From the NCBI GenBank assembly GCA_965216465.1, contig CBDCFW010000004.1, positions 32,001 to 96,000 of the forward strand: a DNA stretch of 64,000 bases. The letters run 5' to 3'. The notes below the pieces were generated by a model that was given only the letters and a program-made list of their open reading frames with translations, searched no databases and had not been told where the DNA came from. This document shows, in pieces, positions 2,564 to 38,334 of this stretch. How positions within the stretch are numbered: the stretch's first letter is position 1; each line of letters starts with the position of its first letter. The position numbers were made by a program, and so were the translations under genes. The DNA is from Bacteroidia bacterium (lineage in GTDB: Bacteria > Bacteroidota > Bacteroidia > NS11-12g > UBA9320).

Positions 2564-2719
2564 CTTCTAAGTAATTAGCTTTATTGCCTGTTAAATATTT
2601 TTGGTCAATACTAAATCTAGAGCATGGCAAAATGCTCAGTTAAATGTTACATGAAAAATTGCGTAGAGTAAGGGAGTGTCCTTATATAGACGTCAATAAT
2701 TTCATCATAAGCTAGTAGT
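2530..2719 (-). ncRNA. Candidate ~190-nt non-coding RNA ('RNA-B')
   Basis: Own promoter (2724-2753) and terminator (2530-2563); no ATG-initiated ORF longer than 8 codons; internal hairpin GAGCAT/ATGCTC (2620-2637); 5' end complementary to the candidate sRNA at 37154-37178. Confidence 0.5.
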
Positions 2720-32153: not shown

Positions 32154-34562
32154 CTATCCAAAATACCCATAACGAGGGTACAAGAATTCTGTACCGGTAA
32201 TCTTACCTAATCCTTCTGCATAATGACGCATAGCTTCTACAAGCCCTGGAATTAACATGTGATTCTCGTTACTGTCTGTTGGGAAGAGAGCCTTCCATCC
32301 ATTGAAAGTACCTAGGCTAAGATCAAAGTCTTGAAGTTGTTCATACAACCCAGTAATTCTTCCGCAGTAAGCTAATAAACCACTGGTGTTGTAATGGTAG
32401 TTCTCTTCAAGGTTTTTAGCATTCTTTATTTTTAAAGCGTTGATAGCTTTTCTAAAATCTTTAGCCGTTGTAAGTACTCGAATATCATCAGTTAACCCAC
32501 CTGTGAACGACTTAGCCGTGTTAAGAATAGCATTTGGTCTGAGATCAACAAATCCATTGTTACAGATTAACCAGTTAATGAAATCTTCTTTGTCTAAACG
32601 GTAGGTTTTGCAAATTTCTTCAATGGTTTCTAACAGCGTATAGTTATTTGTTAAGATTAAATCTAACGGAGCAAAATAAGGTCCTGCAATAATCTCATCT
32701 TTACCTTCAGAATTGGTGAAAATGATAGGCGTACCCAGTGAGGTAATCGCTCGAACTGTTTGCGTAATTGCTGTATGCAAACCGTTGTAGAAAGTTTTAA
32801 TAAAGCCTTTAAGTTCCCCTTTAAATCCTGTAAAGGCCGCAACGTCTTCAACGGTTTTAATGGTCAACATTTGCCCAAAGGTTGCTGCTAACCCATTGAT
32901 GTCCTTTCCATAATCAAGTACATCCTCGAGTAATAACTCGGGAGTATTGTGGTCAACAAATTGACGCACTTCTTGCTCTTTATATTTAGATGTAACTAAC
33001 GTTGAAACAAGTTTTGGACTTAAGTTTTTAAGCTTATGCATCAAGATAAATAAGCCGTGCATATGCAACTCAGCCTGATGTTTACTTGAACCCAATTCTT
33101 GGAAAGCTTTTGTAGTAAATGCACTGGTTTGGTAACGTCTAAACTCTTTACGGTTGTTGAGTAATGCAAAAACCAAACTTGAGTTATCGGTTTGGGTATA
33201 GTAGCAAATTCCATGTTCATCGAACCATGGGCTTTGCTGGTCGTCACCTAAAAATGCATTGTAAACCAAAACGTGAGCTAGCTCTTCTTGAGATGCAATT
33301 TTCATGTTAAGGTATAGGGAGTAGGCATTGTCTAAAGAAAAGAGACCATTCTCACCACTTCGAAGTGCATAGTTTACATTTAAACTTGGGATATTGTCTT
33401 TTTCATTCCCGAAATTAAAATCTGTCTTTTCAGCAGGATTACCTTTTTCATCAACTACCGGATGCTGTGTAGATACGGTCTTCGATGGAAAGATTTTATT
33501 CAATAAGCGTTGCCCTTTTTTATCTTGAGTAAGTTTCAGGTCAAAAGGTAAAGTGTTGTCTTCATCAGCTATTCTAAACTTACGAGATACACCGCTGCTC
33601 AAAGGCAAGGTGCTGCTTTGGTAGATGTAATCAATTCCAATCGCCGAAGCAGTTACTAAACTTTTTAGTCCAAAGTTTGAATAATGAATGGTAAGCTCAT
33701 TTGCATAGAATTGCTTCTCTTTTAGTAAGTCACCTAAAGAGGAGTGAGCATATCCTAGCTTAATTACAGGTTCGCCACCAATAATTTGGTACATACCTCC
33801 AACAGAGGTAGTGTGTGCCATTAAAACTTCTTCAGAATGATGCTTTTTGATATCTCCAAAGTCTTCAGCAAGACCTTTCAGAATTTCTTTTTTAATTGAA
33901 CGCTCGATAGTTTTTTCGGTATCGCCGTCAGACAAGCCGTGTTTATCTAATAATCGATCAATTGACTCAAAGTGATAAGTCGCAACACTTGGAACAGGAA
34001 TACCGCTAAATACTGCACGAAGCTTTTCGTCTTCGTCAAGACCTAGCTTGGTTTTAATTTCCTTTATATATGCTTCAAATGGAGAAGTGGTTCGTGACGC
34101 TTCCGAAATAAGAAAGTCAATCTTCTCTTGTTTATCGTTAATGCCGTTAAGAGCTTCTTCCAAATTGGTTTGAAACTTTGGAGCAGCTAATAGAATTCTG
34201 AAATGCAGAAGAACAAATCCATCAAACAGAAGCAATAATTTGTCGCTTTCTTTTTCAAGGGTTTCAAACTGTTGCTTGCCAAATACTTGATAAAGTTTTG
34301 TGCAGAATTGCTCTATTTGATCAAAGTTTATACCGGTTATTACCAGCTCTGGTTTTTGGTCTGAAAGAACAGGACTTGAATTCTTGATGTACGAGAACGA
34401 ATCAAGAACCTCAATTACAGCTTGACCACCAACAGCACCGGTACCGCCAAAGAATACCATTTTAAAGTTAAACGGATTGGCATTTTTGCCAGATGCAAGT
34501 TCTTTTAGTTTTAAGTAAAAGGACTGGTGTTTGTGTTTTATAAAATCGTCTTTTGTTAGCAT
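32154..34562 (-). CDS. 802-aa hypothetical protein with N-terminal Rossmann-like motif
   Basis: Long uninterrupted ORF; 'MVFFGGTGAVGG' glycine loop; own TATCTTTG element at 34595-34588. Confidence 0.7.
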   Translation of the reverse strand: MLTKDDFIKHKHQSFYLKLKELASGKNANPFNFKMVFFGGTGAVGGQAVIEVLDSFSYIKNSSPVLSDQKPELVITGINFDQIEQFCTKLYQVFGKQQFETLEKESDKLLLLFDGFVLLHFRILLAAPKFQTNLEEALNGINDKQEKIDFLISEASRTTSPFEAYIKEIKTKLGLDEDEKLRAVFSGIPVPSVATYHFESIDRLLDKHGLSDGDTEKTIERSIKKEILKGLAEDFGDIKKHHSEEVLMAHTTSVGGMYQIIGGEPVIKLGYAHSSLGDLLKEKQFYANELTIHYSNFGLKSLVTASAIGIDYIYQSSTLPLSSGVSRKFRIADEDNTLPFDLKLTQDKKGQRLLNKIFPSKTVSTQHPVVDEKGNPAEKTDFNFGNEKDNIPSLNVNYALRSGENGLFSLDNAYSLYLNMKIASQEELAHVLVYNAFLGDDQQSPWFDEHGICYYTQTDNSSLVFALLNNRKEFRRYQTSAFTTKAFQELGSSKHQAELHMHGLFILMHKLKNLSPKLVSTLVTSKYKEQEVRQFVDHNTPELLLEDVLDYGKDINGLAATFGQMLTIKTVEDVAAFTGFKGELKGFIKTFYNGLHTAITQTVRAITSLGTPIIFTNSEGKDEIIAGPYFAPLDLILTNNYTLLETIEEICKTYRLDKEDFINWLICNNGFVDLRPNAILNTAKSFTGGLTDDIRVLTTAKDFRKAINALKIKNAKNLEENYHYNTSGLLAYCGRITGLYEQLQDFDLSLGTFNGWKALFPTDSNENHMLIPGLVEAMRHYAEGLGKITGTEFLYPRYGYFG

Positions 34563-34609: not shown

Positions 34610-34981
34610 TTATGCAGCCACATTGAAATAATTATATAACAGTGATTTTAACTGATTCATATTAGAGGGTTTAGACAAGTAATCGTTTATACCGCCAGCT
34701 TCTAAATCGCTTTCAATTTCGTTGTATGGAAGGCTGGTAAATGCTACTATTGGAGTAGTAGAATCTGACTCACGAATCGCTTTGCTTGTTTCAAATCCGT
34801 TGAGTTTAGGCATAATGATGTCTAATAATATTAAATCGTAGTAATCTTCTTTATAAGCAGATAGAGCAGAAATACCGTCATAAGCTATTGTGTTTTCAAT
34901 GTTAAGGTCGTTTAAGATTTGAGCAATCGAACTTGCTAAAATTTGATTGTCTTCAGCAATCAATACTTTGTAGTTTGACAT
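34610..34981 (-). CDS. Single-domain (CheY-like) response regulator
   Basis: 'VLIAEDN', phosphoacceptor 'LLDIIMPKLNG', 'AFTS', 'YLSKP'; no output domain. Confidence 0.92.
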   Translation of the reverse strand: MSNYKVLIAEDNQILASSIAQILNDLNIENTIAYDGISALSAYKEDYYDLILLDIIMPKLNGFETSKAIRESDSTTPIVAFTSLPYNEIESDLEAGGINDYLSKPSNMNQLKSLLYNYFNVAA

Positions 34982-35643: not shown

Positions 35644-35697
35644 AGAACAAAGGTATAAACATTCTGAAATTAATTGAATTGGGCTTACCTTTGGCCC

Positions 35698-36747
35698 GTG
35701 AATATAGTGTTCTCTCCAGTTGAAGAATCTCGATTATCTCAGGTCGACTTCAACAATCTTGAATTTGGAAAAATCTTTACAGACTACATGTTAGTATCGT
35801 CTTACGATGGAACATCTTGGTCAGATTATAGTATTGAGCCTCTGAAACCATTACCTATTCATCCAGGAGCGTCAATGCTTCACTACGGGCAAACCGTTTT
35901 TGAAGGACTAAAAGCATATAAGTCTGATAATGACCAAGTAAATCTTTTTAGATTGAGAGATAACATGGAAAGATTGAATACCTCGGCAGAAAGAATGCAG
36001 ATGGCACAAATAAATGTAGATGATGCTATAGCTGGTATTACTCGATTTGTAGAAGAACAAAAAGATTGGATTCCAACTAAGAATAATGGTTCGCTCTACG
36101 TTCGTCCATTTATCATTTCTACAGATGATACCTTGAGAGCCAAGCCAAGTGATACGTATAAATTCATTGTTATTGCCTGTCCTGTAGGTTTCTATTATGA
36201 TAATCCCTTAAAAATTTACTTAGAACGTAAGTTTAAAAGAGCTGCTACCGGCGGAGTAGGGTACGCAAAAGCCGGTGGAAATTATGGAGCGTCATTCTAT
36301 CCTGGGGAAAAGATTAAGCACGATGGGTTTGATCAAATCTTATGGACCGATATAACGAACGACTATACACTCGAAGAATTAGGTTCTGCCAACTTCTTTT
36401 ATATGCGTGGTAATGTCTTGGTTACTCCGAAATTAAGAGATAGTATTCTAAAAGGAATTACACGCGATTCAATTATTCAACTGGCAAAAGACCAAGGCAT
36501 CGAAGTAAGTGAAGAGTTAATTACAGCAAAGCATTTTGAAGAAGATCTTTTTCATGGAAGAGTGAAGTGTATGTTCGCCACAGGTACTGCCGCTTCAGTT
36601 ACTTTTGTAAATTCAATAACAATTGATGACAATACGTACACCGTTGATTCAGTTCAGCATGAAGCTGTTCAAGCGTTAAAAGCAAAGATTGATGGAATTA
36701 AGTTCTTGGAAGAGACGGATGCCCACAATTGGAATTTTCTAGTGTAA
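35698..36747 (+). CDS. ilvE: Branched-chain amino acid aminotransferase; probable GTG start at 35698
   Basis: 'FGKIFTDYM', 'LHYGQTVFEGLKAY', 'SLYVRPF', PLP lysine 'AKAGGNY', 'ILKGITRDS', 'TGTAA'. Confidence 0.93.
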   Translation: MNIVFSPVEESRLSQVDFNNLEFGKIFTDYMLVSSYDGTSWSDYSIEPLKPLPIHPGASMLHYGQTVFEGLKAYKSDNDQVNLFRLRDNMERLNTSAERMQMAQINVDDAIAGITRFVEEQKDWIPTKNNGSLYVRPFIISTDDTLRAKPSDTYKFIVIACPVGFYYDNPLKIYLERKFKRAATGGVGYAKAGGNYGASFYPGEKIKHDGFDQILWTDITNDYTLEELGSANFFYMRGNVLVTPKLRDSILKGITRDSIIQLAKDQGIEVSEELITAKHFEEDLFHGRVKCMFATGTAASVTFVNSITIDDNTYTVDSVQHEAVQALKAKIDGIKFLEETDAHNWNFLV

Positions 36748-37103
36748 AAGTATTTAACGTGATAGAAGAGCTTAGCTAGTTGAGTAAGTTTACTATTTGC
36801 GGGTCATTCTTCATTTGTAAAGAGCACAAAACCAGCATTTTATAATTTCGTTGGGTATCTTAATTTTTTATGTCATCCCAAAATGAGACAATTTAACTAT
36901 TCCACATTTAGGCTTGCAAAGTGTTGATAATCTTGGAATTTCCTTTAAATCGGGAGAAATTATCTAAATTTATACCAGATATGGCACATTGGAAAAGTGT
37001 TCGAATTCTGCCATAATTCTAAAAATTAGAATAAAGTGTCTATAAATGGGAATATTTTGAGGGGTTAAAAATGTTAATCGACTGATAATCAGCATAGTTA
37101 ACT

Positions 37104-37120
37104 TTGGCATCATATTTTCA
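37104..37120 (+). promoter_or_regulatory. Putative sigma54 (-24/-12) promoter
   Basis: TTGGCATCATATTTTCA with exact -24/-12 spacing (TC instead of GC at -12). Predicted +1 near 37131 coincides with the start of a hairpin. Confidence 0.6.
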
Positions 37121-37129
37121 TATATAGTA

Positions 37130-37230
37130 GTGTACCGCAAGGTACGCATGGTTAATAATTTTCATCATAAGTAGTAGTTTAGTATTTTATCTTTGAAATT
37201 AAGTCCTGGTCTATAAGGCCGGGACTTTTT
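37130..37230 (+). ncRNA. Candidate sigma54-dependent small RNA, ~100 nt ('sRNA-A')
   Basis: 5' hairpin GUGUACC-GCAA-GGUACGC (GNRA loop), A/U-rich middle, 3' terminator. G-U pairs in both hairpins form only on the + strand. Confidence 0.62.
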
Positions 37231-37234
37231 ATTT
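37201..37234 (+). terminator. Intrinsic terminator closing the candidate sRNA
   Basis: AAGUCCUGGUC-UAUAA-GGCCGGGACUU followed by UUUAUUU; about 450 nt downstream of the ilvE stop. Confidence 0.8.
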
Positions 37235-37257
37235 CGTTAAATTTCTACACTAAAAAC

Positions 37258-38334
37258 TTGAATTTCAGAGCTTATACATATTTCCTACTTGTTTCAATAC
37301 TGCTACTATATCCAAAATTAAGTAGATCTCAACTTTATGAATTAACGGGAGAAGACTTCTATGTTTACTTCGATTCTGATAGCTACGAGCTTACAAAAAA
37401 ACAGCAAGAGGTAATTAAACAGAAGCTAATTGGTATCGGAACAACCAACATCAAGGAGATTTATATTGAAGGGCATACCGATAGTTTTGCTTCAGATAAG
37501 TACAACCAAGTATTAGCTCAACATCGAGCAGAAGCAACTTCAGCATACTTGTTAAGACTGGGTGTGCCTGAAAGATTTATAAAACTTGAAAGTTTCGGAG
37601 AGTCTCAACTCATTTCAGATAACCAGCAGAATAATAGACGTGCAAAAATTTATGTTGTGCACGAAACAGATTTAAAGTCAGTGGTATATCCTCCAAAGTT
37701 TATACGTGTTCGTACAATCAATAGCCAGACTAAAAAGCCTATAAAGGCAAATTTGGGCTTTGGCTATAAGGATAAAGAAATGAAGTTTAGCTCAACTGAT
37801 CGATACGGCTACTCACCGGTGCTTTCTTTGTTGAGTGGTGATCTTGAAATTTCTGCTTCTTCAGATTATTACTTGAGTCAATACATGAAACTTCCTCCGG
37901 GTGATGTCGATAAGCCAGTAGATACACTCGATTATGTTCTTGAACTGGTGCCGGTTAAAATTACAGGGAAGTTTACCTTTAACAGCATCTATTTCTTCAC
38001 CGATAGTGACTCAATTCGACCAGAATCAACCACAGAGCTTCACAAGCTACTAGCAGTATTACAACGCAATAACAGTGCCTACATAGAAATTCAAGGACAC
38101 ATGAATTATCCTATAGACCGCCCTAGAAGTAGCGTACAAGACCGTTACAATATGGAACTGAGTTACAAACGTGCAAAGGCAGTAAATGACTTCTTGGTTC
38201 GAAGTGGAATTGATCAAGAGCGATTAACCTATAGAGGAATGAGTAATACACGAATGAAATTTCCGCTACCTGGAAGTAAGGCTGAAGAAGATCAAAATAA
38301 GCGAGTTGAAGTGTATACGCTTAAGCCCTTATAA
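37258..38334 (+). CDS. Exported protein with two OmpA-like peptidoglycan-binding domains
   Basis: Signal peptide; 'IEGHTD...YNQVLAQHRA...NRR' and 'IQGHMN...NMELSYKRA...NKRVEV'. Confidence 0.85.
   Translation: MNFRAYTYFLLVSILLLYPKLSRSQLYELTGEDFYVYFDSDSYELTKKQQEVIKQKLIGIGTTNIKEIYIEGHTDSFASDKYNQVLAQHRAEATSAYLLRLGVPERFIKLESFGESQLISDNQQNNRRAKIYVVHETDLKSVVYPPKFIRVRTINSQTKKPIKANLGFGYKDKEMKFSSTDRYGYSPVLSLLSGDLEISASSDYYLSQYMKLPPGDVDKPVDTLDYVLELVPVKITGKFTFNSIYFFTDSDSIRPESTTELHKLLAVLQRNNSAYIEIQGHMNYPIDRPRSSVQDRYNMELSYKRAKAVNDFLVRSGIDQERLTYRGMSNTRMKFPLPGSKAEEDQNKRVEVYTLKPL

Follow-up and report, generated by a model that had tools for sequence, protein, structure and literature searches.

A predicted conserved small RNA family with sigma-54-type promoters in a lineage of Bacteroidia, and its candidate antisense RNA partners

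In Vibrionaceae, the Qrr small RNAs (sRNAs) are part of a circuit that comprises LuxO, LuxU and sigma-54 promoters. GlmY/GlmZ and CrcZ are further sigma-54-dependent sRNAs of proteobacteria, which mainly sequester proteins (RapZ, Hfq/Crc) via structured motifs. What is known of sRNA regulation in Bacteroidota comes mostly from a small number of species that live in the gut or are pathogens of fish. For Flavobacterium psychrophilum, -24/-12 promoters of the typical kind have been documented, and the sigma-54 regulon of this species includes envelope and surface functions, among them an OmpA-like-domain lipoprotein (PMC9723704); the passages of that paper considered here name no sigma-54-dependent sRNA, and the species belongs to a different family. 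Nor did we find such an sRNA described for Bacteroidota in the openly accessible article texts that we searched. Here we describe a candidate from a stretch of 64,000 nucleotides (nt) of a Bacteroidia bacterium (lineage NS11-12g; UBA9320; assembly GCA_965216465.1, contig CBDCFW010000004.1, positions 32,001 to 96,000), which in its whole length is called the window in the following. At approximately 37131-37234 on the plus (+) strand of the window there is very likely a real, conserved non-coding RNA gene of ~100 nt. We regard it as a new RNA family that would work like a known kind of regulator.

The likeness to Qrr comprises the length of about 100 nt, a sigma-54-type promoter with putative activator sites ~100 nt upstream, an Hpt gene adjoining that of the putative activator, a response regulator of the NtrC class, an extended unpaired and invariant stretch in front of a terminator, a variable copy number including tandem pairs, and a possible feedback on the activator mRNA. 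However, there is no sequence or covariance-model similarity to Qrr, the phylum is another one, TCCCAAAATGGGA-like dyads form the putative binding site, a single 5' hairpin stands where Qrr has several stem-loops, and there are antisense-like partners under the same promoter type. The missing covariance-model match together with the different RNA, binding site and phylum lets us conclude that the element is not a member of Qrr. We know of no autoinducer system for the circuit of this RNA and, to our knowledge, Hfq is presumably absent from the phylum. With GlmY/GlmZ and CrcZ the element appears to share the control by sigma-54 and an enhancer-binding protein, and with GlmY/GlmZ also that one RNA may antagonise the fate of another; in contrast to these, conservation centres here on an unpaired stretch with complementary candidate partner RNAs, and the element has no Rfam match.

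In our proposal, an independent RNA of ~100 nt with a GNRA-capped 5' hairpin, a 53-nt unpaired core and an intrinsic terminator would, throughout the family, depend on a sigma-54 promoter for its transcription. This promoter would be activated by a response regulator of the NtrC type, the gene of which adjoins an Hpt gene, through binding to phased dyads at ~-106 and ~-85. The RNA would pair in trans via its core; the best-supported partners are ~190-nt sigma-54-type RNAs which are collinearly antisense to the core. Furthermore, candidate mRNA leaders carry CUACUAC, UAAACUAC or CUUAUGAUGAA beside the start codon, namely those of a small open reading frame (ORF), of a PAS/GAF histidine kinase, of surface proteins secreted by the type IX route and possibly of the activator itself; since the phylum initiates translation without reliance on Shine-Dalgarno pairing, a duplex across the start codon would block initiation. 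Taken as a whole, that is, as a trans-acting base-pairing sRNA with sigma-54/NtrC-Hpt input and partner RNAs, we consider this proposal probable.

The element is located in a 510-nt intergenic region between a class IV aminotransferase gene (35674-36747) and an OmpA-domain gene (37258-38334). Its parts are the following.

37130-37147, + strand: 5' hairpin GUGUACC-GCAA-GGUACGC with a GNRA loop, judged from the fold and compensatory changes
37148-37200, + strand: unpaired core of 53 nt, near-invariant across the family in the alignments
37201-37234, + strand: intrinsic terminator, a 12-base-pair stem (37201-37227) followed by UUUUUAUUU, from terminator scan, fold and covariation

The hairpin, followed by an A/U-rich stretch, is found exactly where the preliminary description of this DNA, made from the letters alone, had placed it. 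The terminator it had claimed 3' of the core is there as well: TTTTTATTT directly follows the hairpin 37201-37227, the only terminator-like site between 36500 and 37600 (mean of shuffled sequences, 0.4). A G+C-rich hairpin, a U-run and covariation make this element an intrinsic terminator, although in genus g20 the U-run is interrupted (CUUGUCAUUUAU) and the T-run weak. The + strand folds with -33.5 kcal/mol (z -5.65; none of 200 shuffles equals it), much better than the minus (-) strand with -19.2 kcal/mol (z -3.03). The source genome holds one copy of the RNA. Neither Qrr nor any other curated Rfam family matched anywhere in the window at its gathering score, and between 36000 and 38000 the best matches over the element had E > 1 and scores far below gathering; the view that it belongs to no named family is thus borne out.

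When the intergenic region was compared with related genomes, only ~37067-37247 matched, the remaining flanks being unrelated. The alignment consists of a near-invariant CATGGTTAATAATTTTCATCATAAGTAGTAGTTTAGTATTTTATCTTTGAAATT, two flanking helices which change their sequence and yet still pair, and a conserved upstream TGGCA. By sequence search, 43 of the 65 other family genomes carry the element, and 12 of 13 genera are represented, so that a lack of conservation, which would have spoken against the candidate, does not apply. A covariance model built from 40 sequences likewise finds it in 43 of the 65; in 85 genomes of the sister family the model gave only three marginal hits (E 0.006-0.01), which we take as chance. 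Two copies each occur in genomes G017 and G056, and G044 has a tandem pair. The exact 34-nt core string is found in 28 public contigs, 26 of them from metagenome-assembled genomes, under the labels Bacteroidetes/Bacteroidota, Bacteroidia, Chitinophagaceae, Sphingobacteriia, Flavobacteriales or plain 'bacterium'. The previously suggested seed UUUCAUCAU has to be redrawn: the core is conserved, but the part common to all members including a divergent genus, CAUCRUAAGUAGUAGUUUAGUAU, reaches further 3'.

Two single cases may be mentioned here. Contigs of four sequencing runs, none of the listed runs being recorded as RNA, show that the stretch is present in them; among these, a 459-nt contig of run X1, from the same sample, carries the 5' part of the RNA (37131-37176) behind a different upstream sequence with a consensus-like TGGCAT-AATAT-TAGC, which indicates that a related strain is present in that run. 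In G013 the sRNA homologue is without promoter and terminator and the activator orthologue carries a stop codon; this may be a joint decay of the RNA and its activator module.

Covariation was assessed in two ways. RNAalifold, applied to the 40 sequences, predicts the terminator, with compensatory changes in eight of ten consensus pairs. For a structure that we specified ourselves, and 17 sequences of the same hairpin type, 89.4% of the cells pair, against 28-51% with slid partners, and the covariation score of 0.312 (0.194 in shuffles) is reached by none of 500 shuffles. Pairs changed on both sides number four of 12 in the terminator and two in the 5' hairpin, where U-A in ten sequences stands against C-G in seven, and C-G in 15 against U-A in two. 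Other genera have CUUUC-GAGA-GAAAG or CCCUUU-GUGA-AAAGG at the same place; thus, the hairpin is preserved as a structure and not as a sequence. For the core, no or only weak pairing is predicted, and covariation is not seen. As had been noted beforehand, G-U pairs fit the + strand only: U-G is the commonest combination at two terminator positions (11/17 and 9/17) and G-U pairing is also seen at one position of the 5' hairpin. As these pairs work on the + strand only, they favour this strand, as does its fold energy. On the opposite strand a 59-amino-acid (aa) ORF (36970-37149) has no Pfam match.

Upstream of the RNA the following features are found, with distances relative to the start we propose.

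36876-36888, + strand: distal dyad TCCCAAAATGAGA, ~250 nt upstream of the start
37018-37030, + strand: dyad 1, TCTAAAAATTAGA, inside the palindrome ATTCTAAAAATTAGAAT; centre at ~-107; a putative enhancer-binding-protein site
37039-37051, + strand: dyad 2, TCTATAAATGGGA; centre at ~-86, 21 nt from dyad 1
37082-37092, + strand: palindrome CTGATAATCAG; centre at ~-44, between the dyads and the -24 element
37105-37119, + strand: sigma-54-type promoter TGGCAT-CATAT-TTTC, from family conservation

Direct reading of the sequence gives TTGGCATCATATTTTCA at 37104-37120, to which an 'exact' sigma-54 -24/-12 geometry had been ascribed. This was too strong: the GG is present (37106-37107), but the GC position reads TC (37118-37119). 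Furthermore, TGGCAYNNNNNTTKC occurs once in the window and at least once in 51 of 100 shuffled windows, hence the motif taken by itself does not exceed chance; the whole genome contains TGGCAY-N5-TTTC 24 times, and canonical TGGCAT-N5-TTGCG sites exist elsewhere in it. The argument for the promoter is its conservation. Among 43 distinct RNA copies with enough upstream sequence, 36 have a -24 element at a fixed distance from the core (per hairpin type), 35 times as TGG[CT]A[CT] and once as TAGCAT. This fixed distance places the start at the foot of the hairpin, at ~37131, 12 nt past the -12 position. The exact GG-N10-GC spacing with GC at -12 is found in 24 of these 36 copies; the other 12, the window copy included, have TC, GT, AC or GA, which does not favour a sigma-54 promoter.

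The dyads have the form T-C-Y-C-(A/T)5-G-R-G-A, with centres at ~-106 and ~-85, that is, 21 nt apart. At least one is found at these two fixed positions in 33 of the 36 sigma-54-type copies, while none of six sigma-A-type copies has a proper dyad. Over all 43 copies, 35 have at least one and 22 at least two dyads, compared to 21% and 4% in shuffles. Several loci of g20 have a third dyad ~70-80 nt upstream of the proximal pair, starting near -191 on an approximate scale. At the place of the palindrome CTGATAATCAG most sigma-54-type copies keep a TGATAATCA-like sequence; no other promoter of the source genome was found to combine CTGATAATCAG with a nearby TGGCA, and our guess is a site for a bending protein or a second regulator. 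The six sigma-A-type copies all belong to genus g14, where the promoter is TTTG...TAnnTTTG and TGGCA as well as proper dyads are missing, but hairpin, core and terminator are kept. This exchange of the promoter in front of an unchanged RNA shows that the RNA is the conserved unit and that promoter type and dyads covary. The absence of rpoN, which would have spoken against the candidate, was not observed: the genome encodes RpoN (186 bits to Sigma54_DBD, in a 486-aa open frame) and also four full-length enhancer-binding proteins (230-246 bits to Sigma54_activat), so that sigma factor, activators and upstream dyads are all present. Across the family, these data make control of the RNA by sigma-54 and an activator very likely.

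For the window copy itself the case is less clear. A box TAACTTTG at 37098-37105, which overlaps the -24 element, matches TAnnTTTG, the sigma-A promoter consensus of Bacteroidota, and the GC at -12 is lost here as well as in the nearest relatives L002 and L003. The window copy could therefore be made from this box, with a start ~20 nt further upstream and with sigma-54 dependence lost, and genus g14 demonstrates that the family can move the gene onto a sigma-A promoter. However, TGGCAT and both dyads are retained at the exact positions of the family, no TTTG is present at the expected -33 distance from TAACTTTG, and the box is missing from most relatives, as far as the alignment can be read by eye. 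We consider such a switch to sigma-A possible but rather doubtful. Owing to the degenerate -12 element and the overlapping box, sigma-54 dependence is less certain for the window copy than for the family, and we rate control by sigma-54 and an activator as probable for this copy.

The tandem dyad module recurs at other loci, in the source genome as well as in relatives, and this leads to a candidate for the activator. In G069 the gene downstream of it encodes a protein that combines a receiver, a sigma-54-interaction and a helix-turn-helix domain. The source genome has an orthologue with 78% identity at C5:494882-496222 (locus C5:494543-496222, - strand), and two dyads overlap its TATATTTG sigma-A promoter; an overlap of dyads with the promoter of the NtrC-type gene is seen in two genera. 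The gene is followed by one for a 112-aa Hpt protein, forming a LuxO/LuxU-like pair. Orthologues with at least 65% identity exist in 40 of the 65 other genomes. Including the source genome, RNA and activator are both found in 38 genomes and both missing in 19, and nine are discordant: six with the RNA only (G018, G046, G056, G068, G073, G079, four of them 69-84% complete) and three with the activator only (G010, G019, G049). Two points count against this association. In G018, a genome of 100% completeness, the RNA is present and an activator orthologue was not found; moreover, related genomes are not independent of each other, hence the table overstates the support. Co-occurrence is, however, also seen inside genus g1. 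From the shared dyads and this co-occurrence, including that within g1, we propose that the NtrC-type regulator binds the dyads and activates the RNA. The leader of the activator gene contains UAAACUAC in six of 21 genomes, belonging to six genera, and a CUAC not more than 30 nt from the start in 11 of 21 (L215, being too short, is left out of this count). A feedback of the RNA on the activator mRNA is therefore possible, as a lead only.

Conservation of the genomic neighbourhood suggests another reading of the element, and this concerns the gene downstream.

37258-38334, + strand: gene for a 358-aa protein with two OmpA family domain matches (Pfam OmpA, 9e-34); a syntenic neighbour, not a predicted target

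An orthologue of this gene is located on the same strand 3' of 32 out of 36 RNA copies, also after the divergent ones, and the upstream neighbour gene varies among genomes. From the T-run to the start codon there are 23 nt in the window, ~15-40 nt in g1 and ~25 nt in g14. Such distances would also suit a 5' leader (or attenuator) acting in cis on the OmpA-family gene, in which both share a promoter and the terminator sets the read-through; the weak T-run of g20 would fit as well. A separate promoter would not fit into the gap in g1 and g14, where the OmpA-family gene is probably expressed by read-through. However, the RNA is intact in G058 (100% complete), G059 and G044, and even duplicated in the latter, where no orthologue of the gene was found, and the start region of the gene ranks only 2036th of 2896 for pairing with the seed. 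The persistence of the RNA without the gene together with this poor pairing indicates that the RNA has its own function. The loci of g20 have a separate promoter-like site, GGCAY fused to TAnnTTTG, between terminator and gene. Furthermore, the terminator stem varies, in contrast to the unpaired, invariant core, therefore a conserved anti-terminator pairing is not possible, and neither a ligand-binding nor an alternative structure is evident, as would be expected for a riboswitch. With trans-acting sRNAs derived from leaders the element has in common a short terminated transcript directly upstream of a gene that read-through can reach; it differs from them by its persistence where that gene was not found and by the absence of any evident ligand-binding or alternative structure. 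We thus consider it unlikely that the element is a cis-acting leader. The cis and trans readings are compatible, though, and the RNA may at the same time be a leader whose transcription ends early and which acts in trans as well.

A sigma-54 promoter for the OmpA-family gene, composed of the 3' arm of the terminator, the T-run and GCG, was considered and rejected; its spacing fits, by eye, ~4 of nine g1 sequences. About 2 kb upstream of the sRNA, on the - strand, an 802-aa ORF without Pfam family (32154-34562) adjoins the gene of a 123-aa stand-alone receiver protein (34610-34981).

For a trans-acting RNA, sequences complementary to the core are of main interest. The best one in the whole genome is located in the window itself.

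2692-2719, - strand: best genome-wide complement of the core, ACTACTAGCTTATGATGAAATTATTGAC; 26 of 29 positions identical to the ideal target, E 0.010; possibly part of a partner or target transcript

It lies between convergent genes, downstream of dyads at 2762-2774 and 2783-2795 and of a TAGCTTTG box. Paired with the core, a transcript of 2640-2740 would reach -32.6 kcal/mol, and none of 40 dinucleotide shuffles is as good. A transcript of 2600-2830 would be weakly structured (z -1.8), and beyond the dyads the region is not conserved in relatives. A possible small transcript at 2692-2719 (- strand) would have the TAGCTTTG box, then ACUACUAGCUUAUGAUGAAAUUAUUGAC, and an 8-codon ORF, MMKLLTSI, begins inside it. 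The second-ranking complement, with 15 of 15 positions at C6:247340, falls, downstream of a dyad pair, within the leader of a 48-aa ORF, and in G024 the orthologue of this ORF has CUACUUAUGA over its start codon. The locus C6:247229-247519 consists of the dyad pair, the complementary leader and the hydrophobic 48-aa ORF with a terminator of its own, the ORF being conserved in G024. Altogether, three of five strict-dyad loci examined in the source genome (the four intergenic ones and C3:250680) are within ~200 nt of top-ranked core complements. A further dyad pair at C5:239732-239960 is followed by ~150 nt ending in a strong terminator (AAAAGCGGTTCAACCGCTTTTTTTT) and may represent another small RNA of the same regulon.

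The best-supported partner of the core appears to be a second family of sigma-54-type RNAs. The source genome has two such units in tandem, C4:260504-260721 and C4:260915-261139, both with dyads, a TGGCAC-N5-TTGGA promoter, a putative RNA of ~190 nt and a terminator. They contain GAUAAAA, AAACUACUACUACU, (UGAUGAA) and UUAACCAU in the order of an imperfect antisense copy of the whole core, and their predicted duplexes with the RNA (37131-37200) have -32.0 and -37.4 kcal/mol. Homologues with the same blocks and a TGGYAC-N5-TTGRA promoter are found in G024, G008, G057, G044 and G063. For seven partner sequences from six genomes and four genera the duplexes range from -22.6 to -34.0 kcal/mol, and no shuffle (40 dinucleotide shuffles) matches any of them. 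The partner loci have no match in Rfam. The C4 units are located upstream of a gene for a fused B12-binding/MeaB/methylmalonyl-CoA-mutase-like protein of 1126 aa.

This complementarity also bears on the question of why the core is so invariant. Its 53 nt exceed what most seeds need and contain repeated GUAG/UAGU units, and in a phylum that presumably lacks Hfq one could imagine a platform for a protein, for instance a decoy for one that binds RNA at UAG/GUAG repeats, instead of a pairing seed. However, the conserved collinear complementarity in the partner RNA family explains both ends of the core, and no candidate for such a protein was identified; a protein-binding platform therefore appears improbable. 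That the RNA acts by base pairing through its core is, in our view, fairly likely.

Predicted mRNA targets are leads. Start regions were scanned with a 28-nt seed and compared with five shuffled seeds, whose best values are -18.9 to -21.9 kcal/mol. The start of the 48-aa ORF, which had been added by hand, ranks first (-25.0 kcal/mol), followed by that of a 2329-aa protein carrying a signal for type IX secretion (-24.6 kcal/mol; ACUUAUGAUGAA over the start) and that of a 359-aa protein without Pfam match (-22.6 kcal/mol). A 751-aa protein with a type IX sorting tail shares the fourth rank (-20.5 kcal/mol; UACUACUUAUGA over the start), already below the best shuffle. Among the leaders of the orthologous PAS/GAF histidine kinases, a CUAC-type motif is present in seven of the eight examined; of ten hits, L174 and L176, which match from residue 76 only, were excluded, and the start of L170 is not resolvable. 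In the source genome this kinase (C3:250680-253256; 796 aa, PAS/GAF/PAS) is encoded behind a dyad pair and has AAACUACUACUACUUA directly 5' of its AUG. When 2895 start regions were scanned for duplexes with the 53-nt core, the results were long and A/U-rich, and none stood out clearly; a scan for 11-mers allowing G-U pairs yielded nothing convincing. The enrichment of 8-mers in leaders is modest, at most 3.5- to 4.3-fold, and the strongest merely mirrors AUGAAAA starts. All five copies of the 13-mer AACTACTACTACT in the source genome are non-coding.

Several points weigh against the proposal. Three start regions exceed the best of the five shuffled seeds, one of them being that which we added ourselves, thus the prediction of mRNA targets is weak. 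The kinase gene behind the dyad pair ranks twelfth (-18.4 kcal/mol), and across the family AACTACTACTACT is not enriched, with 26 matches compared to ~58 for the reversed control. The partner RNAs are seen in only six genomes, and some were picked via the pairing motif itself. Finally, what the sequences show is the conservation of the RNA with its promoter and dyads, the covariation, the strand, the joint occurrence with the activator and the complementarity; a discrete transcript with its ends, the protein that would bind the dyads, and the direction and effect of pairing are inferred from them.

There remains the explanation as a chance motif beside an ordinary terminator of the upstream gene, or as a tiny coding gene, for which one could quote that the promoter motif alone is not significant and that an 8-codon frame with a double stop (MVNNFHHK) exists; it is very improbable in view of the family-wide conservation with covariation, of an upstream gene which ends ~450 nt before the terminator and differs between genomes, and of indels of +1, -2 and -3 nt which break the frame and an ATG changed to ATT or GTG, from which we conclude that the RNA is non-coding.

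Elsewhere in the source genome, a single gene, presumably for a repetitive surface protein, contains an extended array (C5:83913-90381) of 147-nt units that hardly differ from each other.

What would this RNA mean for the biology of these bacteria? It is an RNA found throughout the family with an input that can be read from the genome, in the form of the dyads, the NtrC-type regulator and Hpt, and with a candidate RNA partner; together these open a circuit leading from a two-component system to an sRNA to direct tests, in a lineage where little genetics is available. Should the antisense partnership be true, nature would here provide two sRNAs under common regulation that pair along ~45 nt, and this would explain the unusually invariant core. 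One may go further and imagine, in this family of mostly uncultured bacteria, a phosphorelay and sigma-54 circuit like LuxU/LuxO/Qrr but built from an unrelated RNA, in which the sRNA and the antisense sRNA share the activator dyads and titrate each other, with feedback on the activator and the PAS/GAF kinase and with output on surface and type IX proteins, working without Hfq or initiation led by Shine-Dalgarno sequences; this wider picture is tentative, and we hold it to be less likely than not. The parallel with LuxO, LuxU and Qrr would exemplify a convergent circuit design.

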